64,000 nucleotides of DNA, taken from positions 11,066-75,065 of IMG/VR virus record IMGVR_UViG_3300001580_000017; one strand, 5' to 3'. The DNA is from a virus (taxonomy: Duplodnaviria > Caudoviricetes). Made by a program: the position numbers and the translations under genes. The notes under the pieces are model-generated. The model was not told the origin of the DNA, did no database searches, and saw only the letters and a list, made by a program, of their open reading frames with translations. Below, in pieces: positions 8,667 to 36,415 of the stretch (the first letter of the stretch is position 1; each line of letters opens with the position of its first letter).

Positions 8667-8695
8667 TTGACAAGAATGAAAAGATTGTTTACCTT
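8667..8695 (+). promoter_or_regulatory. Sigma70-type early promoter (TTGACA-N17-TACCTT)
   Basis: -35 at 8667-8672, -10 at 8690-8695, 17 bp spacer. Confidence 0.55.
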
Positions 8696-8701
8696 TCTAT
8701 T

Positions 8702-8770
8702 GTAGTTAAGTTTTCGGTTTTATGTTTTCATTTCCGAAAAATCCTGAGGCCTCTCCCCTTGGGATTTTTT
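8702..8770 (+). ncRNA. Candidate about 70-nt small RNA (hairpin plus intrinsic terminator)
   Basis: Bracketed by a promoter and terminator stem ATCCTGAGG/CCTTGGGAT plus T-run; 5' stem TTTTCGG/CCGAAAA; no ORF. Confidence 0.45.
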
Positions 8771-8800
8771 ATTTAATGAAGAAGATTTTAATCTTTTTCC

Positions 8801-8829
8801 TTGACAAATGAATTTTTATTTCGTATATT
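8801..8829 (+). promoter_or_regulatory. Sigma70-type early promoter TTGACA-N17-TATATT
   Basis: Consensus -35, 17 bp spacer, followed by SD GGAGAG and ATG at 8858. Confidence 0.85.
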
Positions 8830-8857
8830 TCCTTCAACAATCAATCAGGAGAGAAAA

Positions 8858-9193
8858 ATGTTAAAAATTTATGGTAGAAGAACCAACGAAGCCAAAGCTC
8901 TGATGAAAGAATTGACAGAAGAGAACTATAAAGAACAACTGATTGATAGAATAAACAAAAATGCAGAAAAACTCACAGAAGAAGTAAAAGCAAGAGATAC
9001 ACACGAAGAAATGATAAAGTGGTTTATTAAGGTAATAGAACAGGATAAACAGCAAGTAACGCGGATGGTAGCAGAAGAAACTGGTGATATGTACTCTGCT
9101 TGCTGGGTGGTATTGGATGGAGAAAAAGACTTGATAAAATTGTTAAACGATGATTATGGTTGGTATATCGAGGAACATCTCTCGCGAAAATAA
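8858..9193 (+). CDS. Hypothetical early protein
   Basis: Start moved to ATG 8858 by SD and promoter (ORF track start overlaps the -35 box). Confidence 0.7.
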   Translation: MLKIYGRRTNEAKALMKELTEENYKEQLIDRINKNAEKLTEEVKARDTHEEMIKWFIKVIEQDKQQVTRMVAEETGDMYSACWVVLDGEKDLIKLLNDDYGWYIEEHLSRK

Positions 9194-13108: not shown

Positions 13109-13795
13109 CTATTGCCCCTTTCCGTTGGTTAAATATAATTTTTCAAAACTCGCGCTCACATTTTTTAGTTGAATATCGCTTTTATTTCCACTTAAATCAA
13201 AATCCCAATCATCAAAAGATCGGAACATGCAATTTTCAGCAACAATAACCCCCTCTTGAGAATTTATTTCTATTGCTGATCCATCATTTTTATATTTTAA
13301 TGGAAACACATAAACATTAAATTTTAAATCATTCGGATAACATTTAATATAACCGCCATTATAATCATTGGAAGAATGGAAGTAGTTATTCAGAAATAAA
13401 GATAAATCAAAAGAAGCCGATTCAATTATACGGAACTGAATTAAATTCTTGCTACTGTTATCTAAACCAGACGGATGGCTTTTTATTATATTGAATATAT
13501 TCTGTTCAACAACATTTAAACCTTTTCCGGGAATAGATATATCCATACAGTTGATAGATAATAGTTGGTCAATTGTAGAAGCAATTTCTGTGGTATCTTT
13601 TCTGTTGGTGTATAGTTTGTTGTATATATTCTTTATATGATCTTTTTCAATATCAAACCGAACATAAGTTAATTCAGATATTAAACGATTTTTGATGTGA
13701 CTATATTTCAAGAAATCATTATTATTTCTAAAAACTTCTAAATCAGCTCTATCCGGTTTATTCGCTTGTATTCTATCTTCCAATTTATTTGCCAT
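13109..13795 (-). CDS. Tail-tube-fold protein (gp54/gp19-like)
   Basis: FRIIESASFDLSLFLNNYF...YPNDLKFNVYV...FRSFDDWDFD...VSASFEKL resembles the gp19/gp54 pattern; follows gp13. Confidence 0.45.
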   Translation of the reverse strand: MANKLEDRIQANKPDRADLEVFRNNNDFLKYSHIKNRLISELTYVRFDIEKDHIKNIYNKLYTNRKDTTEIASTIDQLLSINCMDISIPGKGLNVVEQNIFNIIKSHPSGLDNSSKNLIQFRIIESASFDLSLFLNNYFHSSNDYNGGYIKCYPNDLKFNVYVFPLKYKNDGSAIEINSQEGVIVAENCMFRSFDDWDFDLSGNKSDIQLKNVSASFEKLYLTNGKGQ

Positions 13796-13799
13796 ATCG

Positions 13800-14534
13800 T
13801 TAACCTACTATAAAGTTAGCTGGTTCATTGTATGTTTTATCGAGTTCTTCTTTTAATTCTGTTTGAAGTTCTCTGCCCATACTTAAAGCGAAATCAGCAT
13901 CAAATTTCATACCACCCGGAAGAGGGGTATCACCATAAAGTTTTAAGTTTGTTCCTACCCTGATCCACGCCAACGCCAACACATATTGTCTTAACCAAGG
14001 ATGATTATACATTCCGTTGTCATCATCGGCAACATCATATAAATATTTGTAGCCCTGAATGATTGTTACATAACTTGCTTCCGGGGGAGAGACCAATTTT
14101 AATTTCTGATCCATTTCATTGTAATCAAAATCCAATTCTTTTACAATCATTTTTCTCATTGACTGCATCCATCCTCTCGCCAAATAAATATCAAGCATAC
14201 TAAATGTTCCATAAGTTCCAGATAACCTTGAAGGATTGCTCATTATCATGTTGTCTGCTATAAACCTATCTATACTCATTATATCATACGGATTAGCACT
14301 ATACAACACCGCAATAATGCTTCTTGCTCTGACAGGTAATGTATATTCTTTTGCCCCCATTGTCAAGGATAAAGATGCAAAAAATTCTTGAACTGCCATA
14401 CTGGAATGTTGTTCAAAATACTGTATAGCATCTTGGATGATGTAATCAAGCTGCGCCTCTGTGAGATAAACCTGCCGAATTTGTATTCCCAATTGATTAA
14501 AAATATACTCTATTAATTCTGTTTTAGCACTCAT
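13800..14534 (-). CDS. gp13: Neck protein gp13-like
   Basis: TELIEYIFNQLG..IRQVYLTEAQLDYIIQDAIQYF...WLRQYVLA...GTNLKLYG.TPLPGG. Confidence 0.9.
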   Translation of the reverse strand: MSAKTELIEYIFNQLGIQIRQVYLTEAQLDYIIQDAIQYFEQHSSMAVQEFFASLSLTMGAKEYTLPVRARSIIAVLYSANPYDIMSIDRFIADNMIMSNPSRLSGTYGTFSMLDIYLARGWMQSMRKMIVKELDFDYNEMDQKLKLVSPPEASYVTIIQGYKYLYDVADDDNGMYNHPWLRQYVLALAWIRVGTNLKLYGDTPLPGGMKFDADFALSMGRELQTELKEELDKTYNEPANFIVG

Positions 14535-15485: not shown

Positions 15486-15734
15486 TTATATTATAATCTT
15501 TGCTGTTGATCCTTTCATTTGATCGTTCACTAAAACTTTTATACTACCATACGGAGAATAATGAATATTGTGACAAGTAAAGTCTTTAGGATCGGCTTCT
15601 GGGGTTTCCAACTGCAATCGTTCATATACATTTCTGCTTACTTCGATTGCTTTAATATTTCGATTGCCTATCCATTTTTTAATCCTTCTTACTTCTCTTG
15701 ATTCTTTAGAAAAGTATCTAAAAATTTTCCACAT
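15486..15734 (-). CDS. Hypothetical protein
   Basis: ORF in early operon. Confidence 0.55.
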   Translation of the reverse strand: MWKIFRYFSKESREVRRIKKWIGNRNIKAIEVSRNVYERLQLETPEADPKDFTCHNIHYSPYGSIKVLVNDQMKGSTAKIII

Positions 15735-15736
15735 TA

Positions 15737-16222
15737 TTATCCTTTCTTATTAATTTCTTCCAACTTTCTGATTTCTTTTGCTATATTTTCACAGATACTT
15801 AAAATCTGATCATACTTCTCTTTATCTTCCTCAGTAACAGCACACTGCATTCCGTAACCACCATTCGGATTTAAACTTTCGGAGTAGTATAATTTTTCCG
15901 TTTTAATAGTCAGATCATCAGTGAAAGGATCATGGATATCAATTGTATAACGAACTACAGGTTGCTTGATATATCCCTGTTCTTTTGCTCGTTTGTATGC
16001 TTCTCTGTAATACTCAGGAATCAACCCGCCTTCTTTAATGTCATTTTTCAATAAACTAACACATATTGAATTAAAATTTTCATCTTCTATTGCACCCTCA
16101 TCTTTAAATCCAATAATGATTTCTGATTCGTCTGGGCAATAGAACAAATCATATTCATTAAATTGACCGAGAAATTTGCAGTGAGGACAGGCAATTGTTT
16201 CAAATCTGATTTTATCTTTCAT
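15737..16222 (-). CDS. Hypothetical protein with CPHC...CPD zinc ribbon
   Basis: Start reassigned to MKDKIRF (SD GGAG). Confidence 0.6.
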   Translation of the reverse strand: MKDKIRFETIACPHCKFLGQFNEYDLFYCPDESEIIIGFKDEGAIEDENFNSICVSLLKNDIKEGGLIPEYYREAYKRAKEQGYIKQPVVRYTIDIHDPFTDDLTIKTEKLYYSESLNPNGGYGMQCAVTEEDKEKYDQILSICENIAKEIRKLEEINKKG

Positions 16223-16223
16223 T

Positions 16224-16626
16224 TTATTTCTTCTCCATTTTATTATATTTTCCCAATACTTCTTCCATGAATGCAATTCTTTTTTGAATAGCATCAAAAA
16301 GTTCGCCAGAAGAAGCAGCGCTGGAAATGTTTTTGTATGTGTTGTTTACGCAAGGATATGCCACCCCACATATAGAATATTGAATAAAGACAACAATCAC
16401 AATAAAATCCATCCTTACATAGTTTGTTCGCTTCAATACAAAGAGAACAATCCTCTGTATGACCAAATCCAGTAAGCTTGCTCATTACTTCCGCGCCGAC
16501 ATAAGAATATGTGTATGCCTCATCATCAAAAGGAATTGATTTAATTGTTTTTTCTAATTTTTCTTTTGTTAATGATTTATATTTTTTGATCAGTTTTTTA
16601 AATTCTTTGATGTTGTATTTGTTCAT
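16224..16626 (-). pseudogene. Cys-rich hypothetical protein disrupted by a frameshift near 16373-16386
   Basis: N-half (frame of 16294..16698) continues into frame of 16224..16466; imperfect 7-bp tandem TATTCAA/TATTCTA at the junction; restored stop abuts the next ATG. Confidence 0.6.
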
Positions 16627-16636
16627 TTTATTTCTC

Positions 16637-16876
16637 CTATATCCATTTATCAACAATTTCATCCAATTCTTTTCCACCGAGAAATACCAAATAATCACTC
16701 ATTGATCCATTGATATCCTCATCATATCCCATTTTGTGTAGATGAGTGTCTAATGCAACAATATCTAATGCAAATTTTTTGGACATCGCTGTTAGTAGTC
16801 CGTCCTGAAATCTCGTTATATCTTTGCCTATGAATTTTTTGAAAATTGCGTTTTCTTCTGCTGTTGGTTTATTCAT
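16637..16876 (-). CDS. Hypothetical protein
   Basis: SD GGGAGAG. Confidence 0.6.
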   Translation of the reverse strand: MNKPTAEENAIFKKFIGKDITRFQDGLLTAMSKKFALDIVALDTHLHKMGYDEDINGSMSDYLVFLGGKELDEIVDKWI

Positions 16877-16887
16877 TTTCTCTCTCC

Positions 16888-17187
16888 CTAATCTTTAAAT
16901 ATCTTAATTGGATTTCTCGGATGACCTTCCACCTCTCGTCCTATTATTTTTCTTAATTCCAAAAAAGTGTGATAACTGCCAACGAGTCCAGTAAATTCAG
17001 AATAAATATTTTGAATTAAAGTTCGCACTTCATCTTCAGAAAAAGTTGGAGGAGAAACCTTTTTAAAAACAGTACCATCTAAACCCAAGTATTCTTCGAT
17101 TAAGCTATCAAGTCCACATTCATCCATATTTGTGATCCAATCGTGTAGTCTGTATATTTTTTCGTTTTTATCCATCTTATACTCCAT
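16888..17187 (-). CDS. Hypothetical protein
   Basis: ORF in early operon. Confidence 0.55.
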   Translation of the reverse strand: MEYKMDKNEKIYRLHDWITNMDECGLDSLIEEYLGLDGTVFKKVSPPTFSEDEVRTLIQNIYSEFTGLVGSYHTFLELRKIIGREVEGHPRNPIKIFKD

Positions 17188-17194
17188 TTTATTT

Positions 17195-17407
17195 TTAATC
17201 GTATATACCAGTTACACCAAAACGACCACCACCAATTTCAACAATCACACAAACATCATATACTTCCATTATTATTCTTCCTGATGGAGTATTTAGTCTG
17301 CAAAATTCAAAACCTTTTTCTTCAAGATATTTTTGGATATTACATGACATCGTAATTTTTCCTTCTATTTCTTTTTTTATGGCTTCATATAATTCTGGCA
17401 TTATCAT
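17195..17407 (-). CDS. Hypothetical protein
   Basis: SD GGAGAG; first gene after structured leader. Confidence 0.6.
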   Translation of the reverse strand: MIMPELYEAIKKEIEGKITMSCNIQKYLEEKGFEFCRLNTPSGRIIMEVYDVCVIVEIGGGRFGVTGIYD

Positions 17408-17432
17408 TTTGTTCTCTCCTGTTTAAAAATTT

Positions 17433-17555
17433 TAGTTTAGTGGAAAGGTTTCATCTGCTACCAGAAAATTCTCTTTTGATTTTATGATTGTTTGCCATAC
17501 GAACTGGTTATCTTCTTACTCATCAATTCCTTATTATCAGTAAACCACTAAACTA
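17433..17555 (-). ncRNA. Candidate structured leader RNA or ncRNA
   Basis: Perfect 11-bp closing stem TAGTTTAGTGG/CCACTAAACTA with inner stems TTACT/AGTAA and ACCAG/CTGGT, between an early promoter and an SD. Confidence 0.45.
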
Positions 17556-17572
17556 TTTCAACGAACAGAGGA

Positions 17573-17601
17573 AATATAACACAATTTTATTCCAATGTCA
17601 A
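17573..17601 (-). promoter_or_regulatory. Sigma70-type early promoter
   Basis: TTGACA-N17-TATATT. Confidence 0.85.
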
Positions 17602-17616
17602 GTAAAATCTTCATAA

Positions 17617-17644
17617 AATAAAAAAGGGGCAATAATAGCCCCTT
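17617..17644 (-). terminator. Intrinsic terminator
   Basis: AAGGGGC/GCCCCTT stem with T-run on minus strand after 17663..17989. Confidence 0.8.
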
Positions 17645-17662
17645 GATAGAAATTGATAAACA

Positions 17663-17989
17663 TTATTTCTTGTCTTTCAACACCTTTTCCAAATCTTCTT
17701 TTTTCATTCCACTGGTATTTATTCCCATATCAGCCACTTTTTTCTTCATTTCAAGAAATTCTGCCAGACCGGTTCTTTTGGTTTCAGTCTTTTCGGTTTT
17801 CTCGACTTTCACTTCTTTTTTTGTTTCTTCCTTTACTCTTGTGAAATACTGACCGAAATCATTCATGATTTTTTCATCTATTTCAATTTCTTGTCCCGGA
17901 ATGAGATGATATGTTTTTCCGAGAGCCATGAAATAAAAAGCTCCGGGCTTCCCTGTTCGTTTGTTTACTGTTACTTTGATTTTCGCCAT
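17663..17989 (-). CDS. Basic protein with C-terminal HeH / Rho-N-like helix-extension-helix
   Basis: FLEMKKKVADMGINTSGMKKEDLEKVL; K/E-rich linker. Confidence 0.55.
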   Translation of the reverse strand: MAKIKVTVNKRTGKPGAFYFMALGKTYHLIPGQEIEIDEKIMNDFGQYFTRVKEETKKEVKVEKTEKTETKRTGLAEFLEMKKKVADMGINTSGMKKEDLEKVLKDKK

Positions 17990-18210
17990 GTTTTTGAATC
18001 TCCTTCTGTTTTATTTTTGATTGAATAATACGATCCTTTTGTCACCAAACTGTCTAATGCAGTTCCATTTTTGTCGTGTGTTCCTGAAATAATGAAATCA
18101 TCATCATCCCACACTTTAATTTTGCCTCTCAGTGTTACACCATTTTTTAGAAAAACTTCCAGAACACTATTTTCGTGATCTCGGAAGAAAACATCTCGAA
18201 CAGCACTCAT
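17971..18210 (-). CDS. Hfq/Sm-like RNA-binding protein
   Basis: Sm1 LEVFLKNGVTLRGKIKVWD aligns with Hfq VSIYLVNGIKLQGQIESFD; N-helix DVFF vs DPFL; Sm2-like SLVTKGSYYSI. Confidence 0.7.
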   Translation of the reverse strand: MSAVRDVFFRDHENSVLEVFLKNGVTLRGKIKVWDDDDFIISGTHDKNGTALDSLVTKGSYYSIKNKTEGDSKTWRKSK

Positions 18211-18224
18211 TCACACTCCCACCT

Positions 18225-18608
18225 TTATTTTTTCTTAGTTTTTAATTTTTTGACATTTTCATTCATAATGTCAATTTGTTCTTTATAAATTTTTTTAAAC
18301 TTTTTTAATTCTCGGATAAGACTGTTTATTTTGTACATATTGTTTTTGATATATGTTTGTGTTTCTGAACTATCCCCATCTATATCAAAATCAAATTTTA
18401 ATTGAGTATTACAATCTTTCATTTCAATGTGTGCATCTATTCTTTTCATCTTGTAATCACTGCATTTGTCTTTGCATTTTTTACAATTAAAATTGTTTTC
18501 ACACAAATCAATGTCACTTTTCCAAGCGATGTATGCTGTTTTTTCACCAAGCATATTGTTTAAGAATCCTCTTTTAGTTTGTTTATATCTCCGATAACCA
18601 TTTTTCAT
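18225..18608 (-). CDS. Hypothetical protein
   Basis: ORF overlapping gp41 end. Confidence 0.55.
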   Translation of the reverse strand: MKNGYRRYKQTKRGFLNNMLGEKTAYIAWKSDIDLCENNFNCKKCKDKCSDYKMKRIDAHIEMKDCNTQLKFDFDIDGDSSETQTYIKNNMYKINSLIRELKKFKKIYKEQIDIMNENVKKLKTKKK

Positions 18609-20025
18609 CTGCGGTGTTCCTTACTGAATCCAACACTTTATTGACTTCTGCATCCACTACAGTATTATTTATATTTTTCATAATGTCAATGTTGTCAGTT
18701 TTTAATTCAATAAGTCTTTGTTTCAATTTTGATACACCAACCATGCTTCGTGTTCCCGTCTCAATATGATTTCTGCTTTTAATTAATCTCCATAAATAGC
18801 AAGAAACCATATCTCCACTTAATTGACCCTGAACAGCTTGCTTAATTTCTACCTGTGAAATATAAGTATCAAGATTATGTGGAACACCATAGGAATCTGC
18901 TGTATCGGAACTGCTTACCTCTACCTGTTTTCCTTTGCTCTTGATTTTATCTTCTACTGCTCTGTTACTCTGCATACTTGTGATCACTGGAATACCCATA
19001 TCAATACAAATATGTTGACGAATTTCTCTTGAAATTTCTTTAAAAGTCACATAAGTATTACTTCTGTCTCTCACTGTTATTCCACTCATCAATCCCATGT
19101 AATCAATTATCACAACATCTGGGATAAATTTTTTCTCGATGTAAAGATTTTTGAGCCACATTTTGATATGAATTACGGTTGCTTCTGAGAACTGATGAAC
19201 TTCAATTTTTCCATGTTTTTGATATTTTTTATCCCAATTATTAAAATGTTGCATAAGTTCTGCTTCATTTTTTTGCAACATATCTCTTGTGGAAATATCC
19301 AGCATATTAGCATCAATTCTTTGTAGGTATTCCGATGGTGTAATTTCAAGTGATGCAATTGCTACATTATAACCCTGCAACATTAAGTAAGAAGCGAGAT
19401 GAGCTTTTGTTAAGGTTTTTCCGTGATTTGTTGGAGCCAATAAACATGTAAGTGTTCTTGGTCTCAATCCACCAGTGAGATCATCGAAAGGTTTAAATCC
19501 TGTCATTATACAATTTTCTGCTCTGAGTTCTCTTATTCGTTTTTTTCTATCTTCCTCATCATCGAAAGACATCGAATATTCATCATCTTCTTTCAAATTG
19601 ATATTAAAACCATTTTCAATAATGCCCATGACCTTTTGAAAACTCTCGTTGCTCTTATCCTTATTCAGAACCAACATACTCTCATACCAAGCATTTTTGA
19701 AGGCATTAAATTTTGCCCACTTCTCTGTTTGTTGCATAAGAATTTTTGGAGCAACATCAACTGCAACATTTCGTATAGAATTAATGTAATCAATTAATTC
19801 TTTTTTAGAATCATCAGTCTTTTTAATGTCATTGTTTATGAGCATGGTTATAGTATCGTAGGTATAAGGAGAATCATTGTTTGAACAATGTTTCATGTAT
19901 CTGAATATTTCTTGTGGAAAATAATTCTCAAAGAAATACTCTTTCATTTTTAGAAAAACTTTTGCAGAAAATTCCGGATTAGTTACTAAGCTTATTATCA
20001 TATAATCTTCGTGTTTCAAATTCAT
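18583..20025 (-). CDS. gp41: Replicative helicase gp41 (DnaB-like)
   Basis: TGFKPFDDLTGG, APTNHGKT Walker A, SLE, IIDYMGLM, SMQSNR, SYGVPHNLD, KSR. Confidence 0.9.
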   Translation of the reverse strand: MNLKHEDYMIISLVTNPEFSAKVFLKMKEYFFENYFPQEIFRYMKHCSNNDSPYTYDTITMLINNDIKKTDDSKKELIDYINSIRNVAVDVAPKILMQQTEKWAKFNAFKNAWYESMLVLNKDKSNESFQKVMGIIENGFNINLKEDDEYSMSFDDEEDRKKRIRELRAENCIMTGFKPFDDLTGGLRPRTLTCLLAPTNHGKTLTKAHLASYLMLQGYNVAIASLEITPSEYLQRIDANMLDISTRDMLQKNEAELMQHFNNWDKKYQKHGKIEVHQFSEATVIHIKMWLKNLYIEKKFIPDVVIIDYMGLMSGITVRDRSNTYVTFKEISREIRQHICIDMGIPVITSMQSNRAVEDKIKSKGKQVEVSSSDTADSYGVPHNLDTYISQVEIKQAVQGQLSGDMVSCYLWRLIKSRNHIETGTRSMVGVSKLKQRLIELKTDNIDIMKNINNTVVDAEVNKVLDSVRNTADEKWLSEI

Positions 20026-20237
20026 TTTTTCACCTTATACGATTTATAATTGATTGCTGTCACGATTATAAGAACTATGTTCATAAACACCACCTGATTA
20101 AGTGAATAATACACCGCATAAAGTGACCACAATATACACCCCATGATTTGAGCATCGGGCGCGTGGTTATGTTTTCTGTTGTATAAGTATATTGAAATAA
20201 ATGTAACACAAACGGCAATCCATCCTATATATTCCAT
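20022..20237 (-). CDS. Small membrane protein
   Basis: Three hydrophobic segments. Confidence 0.6.
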   Translation of the reverse strand: MEYIGWIAVCVTFISIYLYNRKHNHAPDAQIMGCILWSLYAVYYSLNQVVFMNIVLIIVTAINYKSYKVKK

Positions 20238-20264: not shown

Positions 20265-21188
20265 TTACAACATATCCGATATTTTTTCCACCACTTTAAT
20301 GAGTTCTATTGTATCTTCTGATGTTCTTTTGGTTATTTCTTGTTCTTTTAAATAATTTGAAAATTTTTCAAAGAACTTAACCATAACTTTAAAGCTTTCT
20401 TTCGTGGTTTTATTTCTTATTTTATATTCCACTGTTTCTGTTTCGTCATAATACCATTCGAGTATTTCTGTACTTTCACACAAGGATATCAGATCAAATT
20501 GCTTATCAAACAACCTATCAAGGATGAGAGCATTTCTTTCACCATATTTTTGTGCAATGAAATCACCAAAATCTTCCGCCATATAACTTTTAAATTCTGG
20601 ATTTTTTGATTTAAGTTTGCTTGGTGGAGAAATTTCTTCCTCTTCCTCTTCATATATAGGTTCTTCTTCCTCTGGTTGATCTCCATAATCATAATCGTCT
20701 TCCGTCATCATACCGTATGTTTCTTCAAGCTTGGGAGAATTTGCTTTTCTGTTGGGGTTCTTTTCAAGTATTTTATCAAACCCATCTTCTAATGCATCAG
20801 TGTAGCAATCCAAATCATCATCCGTCAATTCATATTCTTTTAATTTTTCGTTGGATGAATTAGTATTTGCTGGTATATTTTCTGTTAATTGTTGAATATC
20901 AGATGATGTAGCATATCCAGTATCGTTTAAGCTCGACATATAATCATCAGTCAACGATTTTATTTTTTGCGCTTCATCTGTTGATATTTCCTGTTTTGCT
21001 GGTTGTTGAACTATTTGCTGCCGTTTTTCTTCATTCATTTTTGGTATAACCGGTTCTTTTTGCGGTTGAACTGCTGGTACAACTTTTTGGCTTAAAACCT
21101 CTGTCACCCCAAGATACATATTCATATCATCATCGGTGAGCGCATATTCTTTTAACCCCTGCTCTTGTGGCAAATTATTATTTTCCAT
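20265..21188 (-). CDS. Acidic hypothetical protein
   Basis: Internal repeat LKEY(A/E)LTDDD; E/D-rich. Confidence 0.6.
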   Translation of the reverse strand: MENNNLPQEQGLKEYALTDDDMNMYLGVTEVLSQKVVPAVQPQKEPVIPKMNEEKRQQIVQQPAKQEISTDEAQKIKSLTDDYMSSLNDTGYATSSDIQQLTENIPANTNSSNEKLKEYELTDDDLDCYTDALEDGFDKILEKNPNRKANSPKLEETYGMMTEDDYDYGDQPEEEEPIYEEEEEEISPPSKLKSKNPEFKSYMAEDFGDFIAQKYGERNALILDRLFDKQFDLISLCESTEILEWYYDETETVEYKIRNKTTKESFKVMVKFFEKFSNYLKEQEITKRTSEDTIELIKVVEKISDML

Positions 21189-27416: not shown

Positions 27417-28637
27417 ATGATAAGAACAAGCAAGCATATATTAAAATTCGCTAACAAAAATAAATTAGATATGCTTGAACAAATTTATTCTGATTGCAAG
27501 AAACAAATTGAAGTTTATATTGATCAAATTGTATCCGATAAACTTGAATTAAAAAAGATGATGAGTAGTAAGTTATTATCAAATGAATATATCGAGCAAT
27601 CTAAATGGAAACAAATGTGTTATGAACAAACATCAGAAATAATAAGAAGTCAGTATAAAAAAGCATCAAATAAAAGATTTAATGTTTACAAAAAGATTTA
27701 TGCTAAATTAAAAGAACAAAATAGATATAATAAATTTATATCAAAGAAATTCTCCGAGTTAAATTTAAAACCAATTCAAACCACGAAATACTTAACTAAA
27801 CCGAAATTAAATAATATCAGTATTATTATTCATCCGGAATTACTAAATTTTACATCTGACTCCAACAACTTTGATTCTTTTGTGAGATTAACTGCACCAT
27901 ATAAAAAGAAAACAAATAAAATAAGAAATCACTATCAAACCATCAATCTTCCAATCAAGTATCATTCTCAATCAAATAAATTTAGAACTTCTGGTTGGAA
28001 GTTAAAGAACTCTATTTCTTTGATCAAAGTCAATAATAATTTCTATTTTGATCTATTTTGGGAGAAGGAAGAAGTTGTGAAGAAAGTAAAAGGAAAGCAA
28101 ATAGGATTAGATTGCGGTTACAAAAAATTACTCATTTCATCGGATAATAAAATTTATGATTTGGGTTTAGAAAAAATCTATGAGAAGTTATCAAGAAAGA
28201 AACAAGGATCAAAGAATTTTAAACAAGCTTTAACCGAAAGAGATAATCTAATAAATCAAAGTATAAACAAACTCGAAACAGAAGAAATAAAAATAATTGT
28301 AGTTGAAGATTTAAAGAATGTAAAGGCAGGAAGTAAGTTTAGTAAAAAATTTAACAATAAGCTACAGAGATGGAGTTATCCAAAGGTTTTGAATAAACTA
28401 TCTATGATTTGTGAGGAACAAGGTATTAATTTAGTTAGAGTTGATCCTGCTTATACAAGTCAAACATGTAGTGGGTGTGGATTTAAAGATAAAGACAATC
28501 GTAAAGCCGAGAAGTTTTTATGTTTGGGTTGTGGATATGAAACTGATAGTGATTATAATGCTTCAGTGAATATTCTACATAGAGGCATATATAGTTCCTC
28601 TACCGAGAATAATAAAGCTAATTTAAAGGTTAGCTGA
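27417..28637 (+). CDS. tnpB: TnpB RNA-guided endonuclease (IS607-type), no transposase
   Basis: GLDCGY, VVEDL, PAYTSQTCSGC, CLGC, DSDYNAS; D-E-D triad intact. Confidence 0.92.
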   Translation: MIRTSKHILKFANKNKLDMLEQIYSDCKKQIEVYIDQIVSDKLELKKMMSSKLLSNEYIEQSKWKQMCYEQTSEIIRSQYKKASNKRFNVYKKIYAKLKEQNRYNKFISKKFSELNLKPIQTTKYLTKPKLNNISIIIHPELLNFTSDSNNFDSFVRLTAPYKKKTNKIRNHYQTINLPIKYHSQSNKFRTSGWKLKNSISLIKVNNNFYFDLFWEKEEVVKKVKGKQIGLDCGYKKLLISSDNKIYDLGLEKIYEKLSRKKQGSKNFKQALTERDNLINQSINKLETEEIKIIVVEDLKNVKAGSKFSKKFNNKLQRWSYPKVLNKLSMICEEQGINLVRVDPAYTSQTCSGCGFKDKDNRKAEKFLCLGCGYETDSDYNASVNILHRGIYSSSTENNKANLKVS

Positions 28638-35446: not shown

Positions 35447-36415
35447 TTACAAAAATTTAAGATTATTCGCCAAATGTACCAAACAAGCTCGAAGTATAAT
35501 TAATGAGTCTGTACATATTCCATTATCAGCTACATATTTTCCAAGTATTAAAGTTGCTTTGGATATGTTTTCGTCATCAGATTGAATTATGTTATACATT
35601 ATACTATCGAACTCTCGGAAGAATGTGTTGGCATCTGTATCTATTGCAATTTTTCTCAGTTCTTTTATATTTTTTGATTTCAGGGCAGAAACCAGTTCAT
35701 CTGTTACACCCTTTCCCATATCAAGAATTTTGGCATCAACTTTTGACCGATTATACATTATGCTATACTGATGAAGGGTTGCAATTGTCTTTCTGAAATC
35801 TGGAAATTTTTGAATAATTAGTTTTTGAATTACATCTTCGTCATATTCAATGTTTTCATTTTGCAGAATATAAAATAATCTTTTTCTGAATGCCAAAGCA
35901 AGCTGTCCACGTTCTTCTCTGTTAGCTGGTATCAGATTGAATAATCCTTGAGATAATCTTGATCTGAGTGGTTCTATGATAGCAGATTCATTGTTTGTAC
36001 TCAATATGAATCTTGCCACATGTTCAAGTTCCTCTATTGTAACTTTAAGGGACATCTGCAAAGCTGGTGTCATTTGCTCCGCTTCATCAATGTAAATGAG
36101 TTTGTATTTGAATGTTTTATCGGCATCGGCGTAGGTACTGGCATATTTAATAATTTTATCCAGATTGGCTATTCCTCTATCTTCCCTGCTTGATCCGTTT
36201 AGATACATCATATCAGCATTTAATTCTGTTTGAAGCACTTTGACAAGTGTAGTTTTTCCTGTTCCCGAATTTCCATATAAGAGCATGTTCGGAAGATTTT
36301 GTTCTTTGATACAACTCTCAAAATAATTTCTGATATTGTTTGTGAGTATGCAGTCCTTTAGTGTTGGTGGTCTCCATTTCTCTACCCATATGCTTGTGTC
36401 AGTTGTTTCTTTCAT
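35447..36415 (-). CDS. gp44: Clamp loader large subunit gp44
   Basis: WVEKWRP, LLYGNSGTGKTT, IDEAE, IIEPLRSR, FPDFRK. Confidence 0.92.
   Translation of the reverse strand: MKETTDTSIWVEKWRPPTLKDCILTNNIRNYFESCIKEQNLPNMLLYGNSGTGKTTLVKVLQTELNADMMYLNGSSREDRGIANLDKIIKYASTYADADKTFKYKLIYIDEAEQMTPALQMSLKVTIEELEHVARFILSTNNESAIIEPLRSRLSQGLFNLIPANREERGQLALAFRKRLFYILQNENIEYDEDVIQKLIIQKFPDFRKTIATLHQYSIMYNRSKVDAKILDMGKGVTDELVSALKSKNIKELRKIAIDTDANTFFREFDSIMYNIIQSDDENISKATLILGKYVADNGICTDSLIILRACLVHLANNLKFL

Follow-up and report, generated by a model that had tools for sequence, protein, structure and literature searches.

Hfq is the central sRNA chaperone of bacteria. It holds the 3′ U-tails of sRNAs in a proximal pocket to which Q8, Y55, K56 and H57 (and F42) belong, and an arginine patch on its rim is needed for RNA annealing.

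The relation between Hfq and phage T4 has been recast by two papers published in 2025–2026, one concerning distant LSm-like proteins of T4 with an effect on gene 41 mRNA, the other concerning host Hfq as a gate in the neck. In the T4 neck, a hexamer of host Hfq docks with its distal face under the gp14 hexamer and stabilizes the pre-assembled gp13/gp14 neck (Han et al., 2026, PMC12929587; PDB 9LU5), where it provides the genome with a second gate up to the point of tail attachment (PMC12929587). According to these authors, the acidic surface of gp14 has been conserved across T4-like phages (PMC12929587). T4 itself encodes GoF together with MotB.1 and Frd.2, a family of small beta-barrels with an LSm-like fold for which an RNA role has been proposed (Kim et al., 2025, PMC12152347), and the GoF(D25Y) variant stabilizes gene 41 mRNA (PMC12152347). 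Sm-fold proteins linked to phages are already known from the T4 GoF family (PMC12152347) and from a cyanophage-type pentamer (PMC3710371). In what the sources say of it, a Sm-fold protein attributed to a phage in 2009 has a C-terminal helix and forms pentamers (PMC12152347; PMC3710371).

What is new here is a family in T4-like phages with direct sequence similarity to Hfq, a defined pattern of loss and retention relative to Hfq, and an obligate HeH partner gene. A search of the literature found no description of this Hfq-like family.

Genome Setting and Transcription Unit

The window, which is the whole 64,000-nt stretch of DNA that was analysed, forms part of a 75 kb viral record that is estimated to be 40% complete, and has a G+C content of ~30%. 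It contains a gp23-like capsid gene with 28% identity to Campylobacter T4-like phages, and also encodes a gp41-like helicase, UvsX, an NAD ligase and a gp13-like neck protein. Since gp23-, gp41-, UvsX- and gp13-like genes are all present, the source phage is classed as a distant member of the T4-like myoviruses, with a genome of roughly 200 kb. The only host signal is a TnpB copy that matches an uncultured Bacilli MAG at 41%, which is not enough to identify a host. In the window, neither Rfam nor tRNA scanning gave a match, and no relatives were recovered from 50,697 phage records when the region and the 79-aa protein were used as blastn and tblastn queries.

The preliminary description of this DNA had reported two overlapping ORFs, and both are present on the minus strand. 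The Hfq-like gene (79 aa; 17971..18210), evidenced by its ORF, profile matches, an AF2 model and structural matches, overlaps by 19 nt the partner gene (108 aa, with an HeH-like C-terminus; 17663..17989), which is evidenced by its ORF and an AF2 model. A strong Shine-Dalgarno site read from the sequence, AAGGTGGGAG (18217..18226, minus strand), sits 6 nt before the ATG of the Hfq-like gene and overlaps the stop codon of an upstream 127-aa ORF. The partner gene has a strong Shine-Dalgarno site of its own, GAAGGAGA (18000..18007, minus strand), 10 nt before its ATG, and both the sequence and the tail alignment place this site within the T-E-G-D tail codons of the Hfq-like gene. A homologue of the partner follows directly after the Hfq-like gene in all four loci with context (the window, L001, L005 and L006), with the two genes either overlapping or within 12 nt of each other, and the pair appears to be translationally coupled. 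L006 keeps the pair although its upstream neighbour is a TnpB-like fragment and not a helicase.

In the window, the upstream gene of the unit encodes a gp41-like DnaB-family replicative helicase (18583..20025, minus strand). Between it and the pair lies a Cys-rich ORF of 127 aa (18225..18608, minus strand), which by position belongs to one transcription unit with the pair; it is not conserved, and its place in relatives is filled by an unrelated acidic ORF of 109–114 aa. The gene order in L001 and L005 is gp41, small ORF, Hfq-like, HeH, endolysin, gp13, such that the gp13-like gene is located one gene (the endolysin) downstream of the pair. The gp13-like neck protein gene of the window is found at 13800..14534 (minus strand), and the ORF after it (13109-13795) is gp14 by position only, as similarity to T4 gp14 was not detected.

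Directly 3′ of the partner gene, after its stop codon, is an intrinsic terminator (17624..17644, minus strand) that consists of a hairpin, AAGGGGC...GCCCCTT, and a T-run. The same stem is found in L001, and a matching terminator was not found in L005 or L006. Beyond the terminator, a near-consensus sigma-70-type promoter opens a block of small genes. This succession of terminator and new promoter fits the pair being the end of the helicase transcription unit, which is how the preliminary description had read the operon. A late-promoter-like motif, TATAAATA (18666..18673, minus strand), falls within the 3′-terminal part of the helicase gene. It precedes by 57 nt the 127-aa ORF with which the three-gene block begins; the equivalent spacing is 56 nt for the capsid gene and 52 nt for the neck gene. 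Across the window, 16 of the 26 TATAAATA motifs are located 10–100 nt upstream of a gene start, as against 2.4 ± 1.5 for random positions. In L001 the homologous codons also carry the motif, and another copy follows after 30 nt. Judged by the position and spacing of the motif and its conservation in L001, late expression of the three-gene block is likely.

Relationship of the 79-aa Protein to Hfq

Although strongly diverged, the 79-aa protein does belong to the Hfq branch of the Sm fold. The pattern L.V.L.NG..L.G.I...D is matched exactly at residues 17–35, which bears out the strong Sm1 match that had been noticed earlier. Taken alone, the window copy matches Pfam PF17209 with an E-value of 0.0027 and 17.7 bits, over the Sm1 region only and without reaching the cut-off of 27 bits, and it scores 17.3 bits against the NCBIfam Hfq equivalogs, where the cut-offs of 61.7 and 95 are likewise not reached. 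As a family the signal is stronger, with all nine members matching both PF17209 (best 5e-8) and TIGR02383 (best 6e-9). One relative (P0010) has a precomputed PF17209 assignment, and JGI has named two of the nine family clusters Hfq. When the family profile was searched against PDB sequences (E up to 1), 33 of the 35 matches were Hfq, the best with an E-value of 3.2e-5, and hhalign of the family against E. coli Hfq gave a probability of 84.5% (E 7e-6).

The AF2 model of the protein (pLDDT 80) consists of an N-terminal helix and five strands (H3-11, E16-21, E26-34, E38-44, E51-57, E61-66), which is the Sm topology. Its best Foldseek matches in the PDB are Hfq, with TM-scores by target of 0.7–0.87, and the structures matched include the Hfq-Crc-amiE assembly and an Hfq-dsDNA structure. 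In VIA-align the top seven matches are all Hfq (Z 9.9–10.5, rmsd 1.0–2.0 Å over 58–64 residues), and the next match after these reaches only Z 8.3. Identity to Hfq in the structural alignments is about 20–25%. The predicted fold is therefore Sm and PF17209 is matched by profile, which was the fold check named in the preliminary description, and the identification of a phage-encoded Hfq/Sm-like protein stands, given PF17209/TIGR02383 matches in nine of nine members and a fold that matches Hfq.

The family is very small, being made up of nine clusters among 5.8 billion proteins, and is seen only in uncultured large T4-like phages. Scans of viral and metagenome contigs added no more than one viral contig and two short contigs from metagenomes, and a scan of bacterial genome contigs found no bacterial copy. 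Members P0006, P0001 and P0007 are carried on contigs of 214 kb, 128 kb and 79 kb, respectively. Neither the Hfq-like family nor the partner protein of the window has a match in PHROG. Long matches P0008, P0011 and P0012 were discounted as members, as they align via several short stretches, and P0012 is on reading a repeat protein. Among the BFVD matches are mycobacteriophage proteins labelled 'Hfq-like domain'.

PF17209 is absent from the genomes searched of T4, one Campylobacter T4-like phage and one T4-like cyanophage. A tblastn search of the E. coli Hfq core against the 50,697 phage records returned only seven matches. The region in MT835489.1 carries mutL-miaA-hfq, which is a bacterial context, and record titles and sizes suggest a bacterial origin for the remaining six too, two of them being Salmonella contigs by title. 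The earlier statement that Hfq is rare in phage genomes agrees with this, in that the seven Hfq-core matches found in those records appear to be bacterial.

Features Kept and Lost

The nine family members were aligned with E. coli Hfq and Firmicute-type Hfq, and residues are numbered here as in E. coli. In Sm1, N28, G29, G34, a Trp at the F39 position and D40 are invariant in all nine members. The aromatic residue at position 25 is Phe in eight members and Tyr in one, and F11 is kept, as Tyr in one member. The residues of the distal-face A-site and R-site (Y25, G29, I30, L32 and Q33) are retained as F/Y, G, V and L, with the Q33 position occupied by Arg in eight of the nine members, like the Hfq of the Gram-positive B. 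subtilis. The invariant distal and Sm1 residues hold across members that are 41–68% identical to the window copy.

The Sm2 motif [YF]KHA[IV], on the other hand, is lost from the family. Y55 is replaced by P, T, N or S and H57 by D, G, E or N, and the K56 position holds K, R, M, F or I. What had been called a weaker Sm2 was thus understated, for the YKHAI motif is absent and not merely weak. Q8 is replaced by Arg (Ile in one member), and the equivalent of F42 is F, V or I. At the proximal pore, loop 3 has an acidic sequence (WDDDD or a variant of it), and loop 4 is 6–7 residues longer than that of Hfq and mostly basic. At the rim patch, which is RRER in Hfq (R16, R17, R19), the window copy reads H-E-N-S and has no basic residue, and relatives have one or two Lys/Arg. 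The Sm core of the window copy has a net charge of 0 and is less basic than E. coli Hfq, and the beta4-loop5-beta5 edge, which is the ring interface in Hfq, is diverged in the family. The family is a separate, diverged lineage and not an hfq orthologue.

The basic tail that had been reported is present in the window copy. It is given no function here, because it is missing in three of the nine members and because its conserved T/N-E-G-D codons (TEGD/NEGD) are the Shine-Dalgarno site of the next gene, that of the partner.

The Partner Protein

Few relatives were found for the 108-aa partner, and searches of its sequence against PDB sequences and Pfam gave no match. Its AF2 model (pLDDT 76) has three parts, namely a small beta domain (residues 1–52), a disordered Lys/Glu linker of variable length (residues 53–71) and a C-terminal part (residues 72–108, pLDDT ~85) in which a helix (72–87), a nine-residue extended loop and a second helix (97–107) give a predicted HeH-like arrangement. 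The preliminary description had spoken of a Rho-N/HeH-like domain. AF2 does predict the helix-loop-helix shape, but the short profiles of Pfam HeH (PF12949), Rho_N (PF07498) and SAP (PF02037) had no match to the 108-aa ORF at E-values up to 1, and those of YqbF and DUF7210 did not match it either. Atlas look-alikes of the partner include Rho_N, SAP and HeH clusters, which are leads only.

The C-terminal part carries the motif L-E-M-K-x-x-V-x-x-x-G-I-N-T-x-G-M-K-K-x-D-L. It is homologous to the C-terminus of 93–104-aa proteins from an unrelated phage of 45 kb (hhalign 97%, E 2e-11), whose genes lie two genes past the one for the major head protein, and head-morphogenesis modules are the only place where relatives of the HeH motif were detected. 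As a whole, the partner weakly resembles the prophage protein YqbF (Z 4.2, rmsd 13.6 Å over both domains). To our knowledge, YqbF has no known function and no known Sm neighbour. The best fold matches of the N-terminal domain are GINS B-domains and the C-domain of the archaeal primase PriS, at Z 5.0–5.9, which is within the stated background range of the tool; these, and matches to the bL9 N-domain and the lambda gpFI C-domain, were set aside as background.

Possible Roles of the Pair

The obligate partner gene, together with the structural use that T4 makes of host Hfq, opens a reading of the locus other than the sRNA regulatory layer or Hfq-poisoning subunit that the preliminary description had suggested. 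An Hfq-type sRNA layer or a poisoning subunit finds no support in the protein itself, where the U-tail pocket is replaced, loop 3 is acidic and, in the window copy, the rim patch is absent; neither canonical sRNA matchmaking nor Hfq poisoning is likely.

The leading model, which is put forward tentatively, is a putative distal-face RNA-binding ring with an HeH cofactor. The 79-aa protein would form an Hfq-like ring whose conserved, positively charged distal face, with the aromatic residue at the Y25 position, N-G-V, Arg at Q33 and the enlarged basic loop 4, would bind single-stranded A-rich nucleic acid, most likely the leaders of phage mRNAs. With the proximal pocket and the rim gone, the ring would have to use the distal face and basic loop 4, and canonical sRNA matchmaking would not be expected of it because both the proximal 3′-U pocket and the rim arginine patch have disappeared. 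The partner would be a stoichiometric cofactor, adding a second contact with nucleic acid or protein via its HeH motif, in a logic that may be comparable to that of Hfq and Crc on A-rich ribosome-binding sites. Expression would probably come from read-through of the helicase unit and from the internal late promoter, which would place the action of the pair mid-to-late in infection.

Binding of A-rich single strands suits the mRNA leaders of a genome that is 70% A+T. Nucleic-acid binding is the default expectation for an Hfq relative, but the conservation of Sm1 may be purely structural rather than for RNA binding. The charge of 0 on the Sm core of the window copy, the location of relatives of the partner motif in head modules and the structural use of Hfq by T4 are observations that run against the leading model.

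The head-module relatives of the HeH motif, and the finding of the pair in a T4-like phage when T4 itself uses Hfq structurally, favour instead a neck factor that the phage encodes for itself, in which the Hfq-like ring would replace the host Hfq gate under gp14, for example in a host without a suitable Hfq, and the HeH partner would be an accessory that binds the DNA end or the head. This explanation is possible, though we regard it with some doubt, and the same holds for the reading in which a distant T4-like lineage has exchanged the borrowed host Hfq for an Hfq-like ring of its own, devoid of the RNA pocket, as a morphogenetic part, while the HeH protein would keep hold of the DNA end or the head. 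T4 provides the precedent, with Hfq making its contacts through K31, Q33, T49, R19 and S65, mostly on the distal side (PMC12929587), and the Hfq chain of the T4 neck complex (9lu5_T) matches the 79-aa model at Z 10.2; however, contact residues differ here (K31 is T and Q33 is R), and host Hfq is only accessory in T4, where its loss in E. coli delta-hfq lowers the yield roughly 2-fold. In T4, Hfq is found in tail-less filled heads but not in mature virions. The phage does have gp23-, gp41-, UvsX- and gp13-like genes, but the Campylobacter T4-like phage and the T4-like cyanophage that were searched encode no Hfq-like gene, and the ORF after gp13 is without detectable similarity to T4 gp14. While L001 and L005 place the pair one gene from gp13, the terminator parts it from the neck genes and leaves it in the helicase unit, and its neighbours in L006 are not neck genes. 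The late-promoter motif before the block would suit a neck factor, as would the loss of the RNA pocket while the distal face and the enlarged basic loop 4 were kept, the homology of the HeH motif to small head-module proteins (hhalign 97%, E 2e-11) and the weak resemblance of the partner to the two-domain YqbF.

The remaining explanations are considered less probable. An accessory role in replication or recombination, in which a ring binding ssDNA or primers would work with the gp41-like helicase and UvsX module while the HeH protein binds DNA, is improbable. The pair does lie within the UvsX...gp41 gene string in three of the four loci, yet L006 has the pair without replication genes, and the small ORF between the helicase and the pair is not conserved. 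Hfq is known to bind DNA, and an Hfq-dsDNA structure is among the matches, while the best, weak matches of the N-terminal domain of the partner, GINS B-domains and the PriS C-domain, point the same way; their Z of 5.0–5.9, however, is inside the background range of the tool, and a late promoter would be unexpected for a replication factor. It is very unlikely that the ring is a canonical sRNA chaperone that binds the U-tailed candidate RNAs of the phage and anneals them to mRNAs. Homology to Hfq would allow this, and one candidate RNA, at 8667-8860, does finish with a hairpin and U-run, the classical Hfq module, but the U-tail pocket is not conserved (H57 is D/G/E/N, K56 is variable and the F42 equivalent is F/V/I), loop 3 is acidic, the window copy lacks the basic rim patch, and scores are far under the Hfq equivalog cut-offs (17 bits vs 62–95). 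Least probable of all, and hardly to be expected, is a poison subunit that would inactivate host Hfq by co-assembly. The fold is the same and the size similar, but mixed rings with host Hfq are unlikely, judged from the sequence, because identity is about 20–25% and the beta4-loop5-beta5 edge that forms the ring interface has diverged. In addition, the family has a conserved surface and a partner gene that are its own, and expression late in infection, which is likely, would be poorly suited to host takeover.

If the leading model of an RNA-binding ring is true, the protein would be a minimal Hfq that uses only the distal face, with a new cofactor. Were the pair located in the neck instead, the Hfq gate would be important enough for viral encoding; the morphogenetic reading, if true, would make this the first Sm protein encoded by a virus to play a structural part in virion assembly, and would suggest great age and wide distribution within the T4 superfamily for the Hfq gate that was reported for T4 in 2026. 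In both cases the two proteins form a module that is uncharacterised, both window proteins being without a PHROG match. An Hfq relative in a T4-like phage is also a natural experiment that parts the roles of Hfq, with the sRNA pocket gone, the distal face kept and a partner fixed.

Comparison With Described Systems

Like the 79-aa protein, the GoF-type proteins are small beta-barrels encoded by T4-type phages, and their link to gene 41 has a parallel in the Hfq-like gene that lies here in the gene 41 unit. They have no N-terminal helix and no sequence match to Hfq, however, whereas the 79-aa family matches Hfq profiles directly. Kinship with T4 GoF and MotB.1 was rejected, at hhalign probabilities of 0.3% and 0.04%, respectively. 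The pentameric Sm-fold protein attributed to a phage was not among the sequence or fold matches of the 79-aa protein.

For the partner, the prophage protein YqbF of B. subtilis (PDB 2HJQ) has the same layout, in which a linker joins a small beta N-domain to a C-terminal helix-extended-helix. The Pseudomonas Hfq-Crc assembly (PDB 8BVH/8BVJ), in which the distal face of an Hfq ring acts on A-rich mRNA sites with a dedicated protein partner, offers an analogy only, as Crc is unrelated to the HeH partner.

Bacterial Hfq (PF17209, TIGR02383; E. coli, C. crescentus 6GWK, B. subtilis 3HSB, A. aeolicus 5SZD) is the sole family matched by sequence for the 79-aa family, and also supplies the top seven structural matches. 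The helix and five-strand fold, Sm1 and the distal residues are common to both. Unlike bacterial Hfq, the 79-aa family is without YKHA(I/V) and the uridine pocket, has an acidic loop 3 and a longer loop 4, and is phage-encoded and tied to a partner gene.

The Hfq gate of the T4 neck resembles the present locus in that it belongs to a T4-like phage, has the same ring-protein fold, and contacts gp14 with the side that is conserved here, where a gp13-like gene is also found nearby. The difference is that T4 borrows a host protein and needs no phage gene, whereas here the protein is encoded by the phage, has other residues at the contact positions, and is accompanied by an extra partner.

Overlap of the Hfq-like and partner genes

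The tail of the 79-aa Hfq-like protein (17971–18210, minus strand) starts with a conserved T/N-E-G-D at residues 68–71, whose codons, GAAGGAGA (window 18000–18007), double as the Shine-Dalgarno site for the partner gene (17663–17989, minus strand). The overlap of the two genes, rather than a feature of the protein itself, appears to account for the conservation of the tail. The C-terminus of this 108-aa partner has the motif G-I-N-T-x-G-M-K-K-x-D-L-E-K-V-L in common with small proteins of a 45-kb phage unrelated to the window (L013, 6890–7204; L014, 4352–4633), which are encoded two genes downstream of the major head protein. Judged from these sequences, a short HeH module seems to move from one phage protein to another. 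A search of the record for Rho_N (PF07498) gave no signal in the partner; the sole signal, a weak one (E 0.011, 12.9 bits), falls at window 35642–35683 (minus strand), inside an ORF at 35447–36415.

Phage-borne hfq was also considered in MT835489.1, a 63-kb record from human feces labeled "UNVERIFIED: Bacteriophage sp.", but was rejected, since mutL-miaA-hfq are in bacterial order and the DNA is therefore bacterial or prophage-flanking. The Hfq-bearing "phage" records of Salmonella, Acinetobacter and Staphylococcus (386 kb) look bacterial too.

Genomic context

Between the helicase gene and the Hfq-like gene lies a Cys-rich ORF of 127 aa (18225–18608, minus strand; C-x5-C-x2-C-x3-C), whose place in the related loci L001 and L005 is taken by an unrelated acidic ORF of 109–114 aa. 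In a third related locus, L006, the Hfq-like gene is immediately preceded by a TnpB-like C-terminal fragment (2–427); an ORF of the window at 27417–28637 is also TnpB-like, and its top genome match is an uncultured Bacilli MAG, at 41%. Relative to L001 and L005, an inserted block (15486–17644, minus strand) lies between the partner gene and the endolysin in the window; it contains a terminator, around seven small ORFs and two tandem sigma-70-like promoters (17601–17573 and 17561–17533, minus strand). The same TTGACA-17-TATATT promoter as in the window occurs at the end of the L005 partner gene.

Comparison with T4-type phages

Between UvsX and the helicase, the window encodes a 71-aa membrane protein (20022–20237) and a very acidic 307-aa protein (20265–21188), both on the minus strand. 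Based on annotations under the helicase matches, T4-type genomes have the gene for gp40, the head-vertex assembly chaperone, in this interval. Across the whole window, TATAAATA was observed 27 times against 13 expected, and 16 of the 26 scorable sites lie 10–100 nt upstream of a gene start, compared with 2.4 for random positions; given this enrichment and placement, the motif behaves as a late promoter of the T4 type in this phage.
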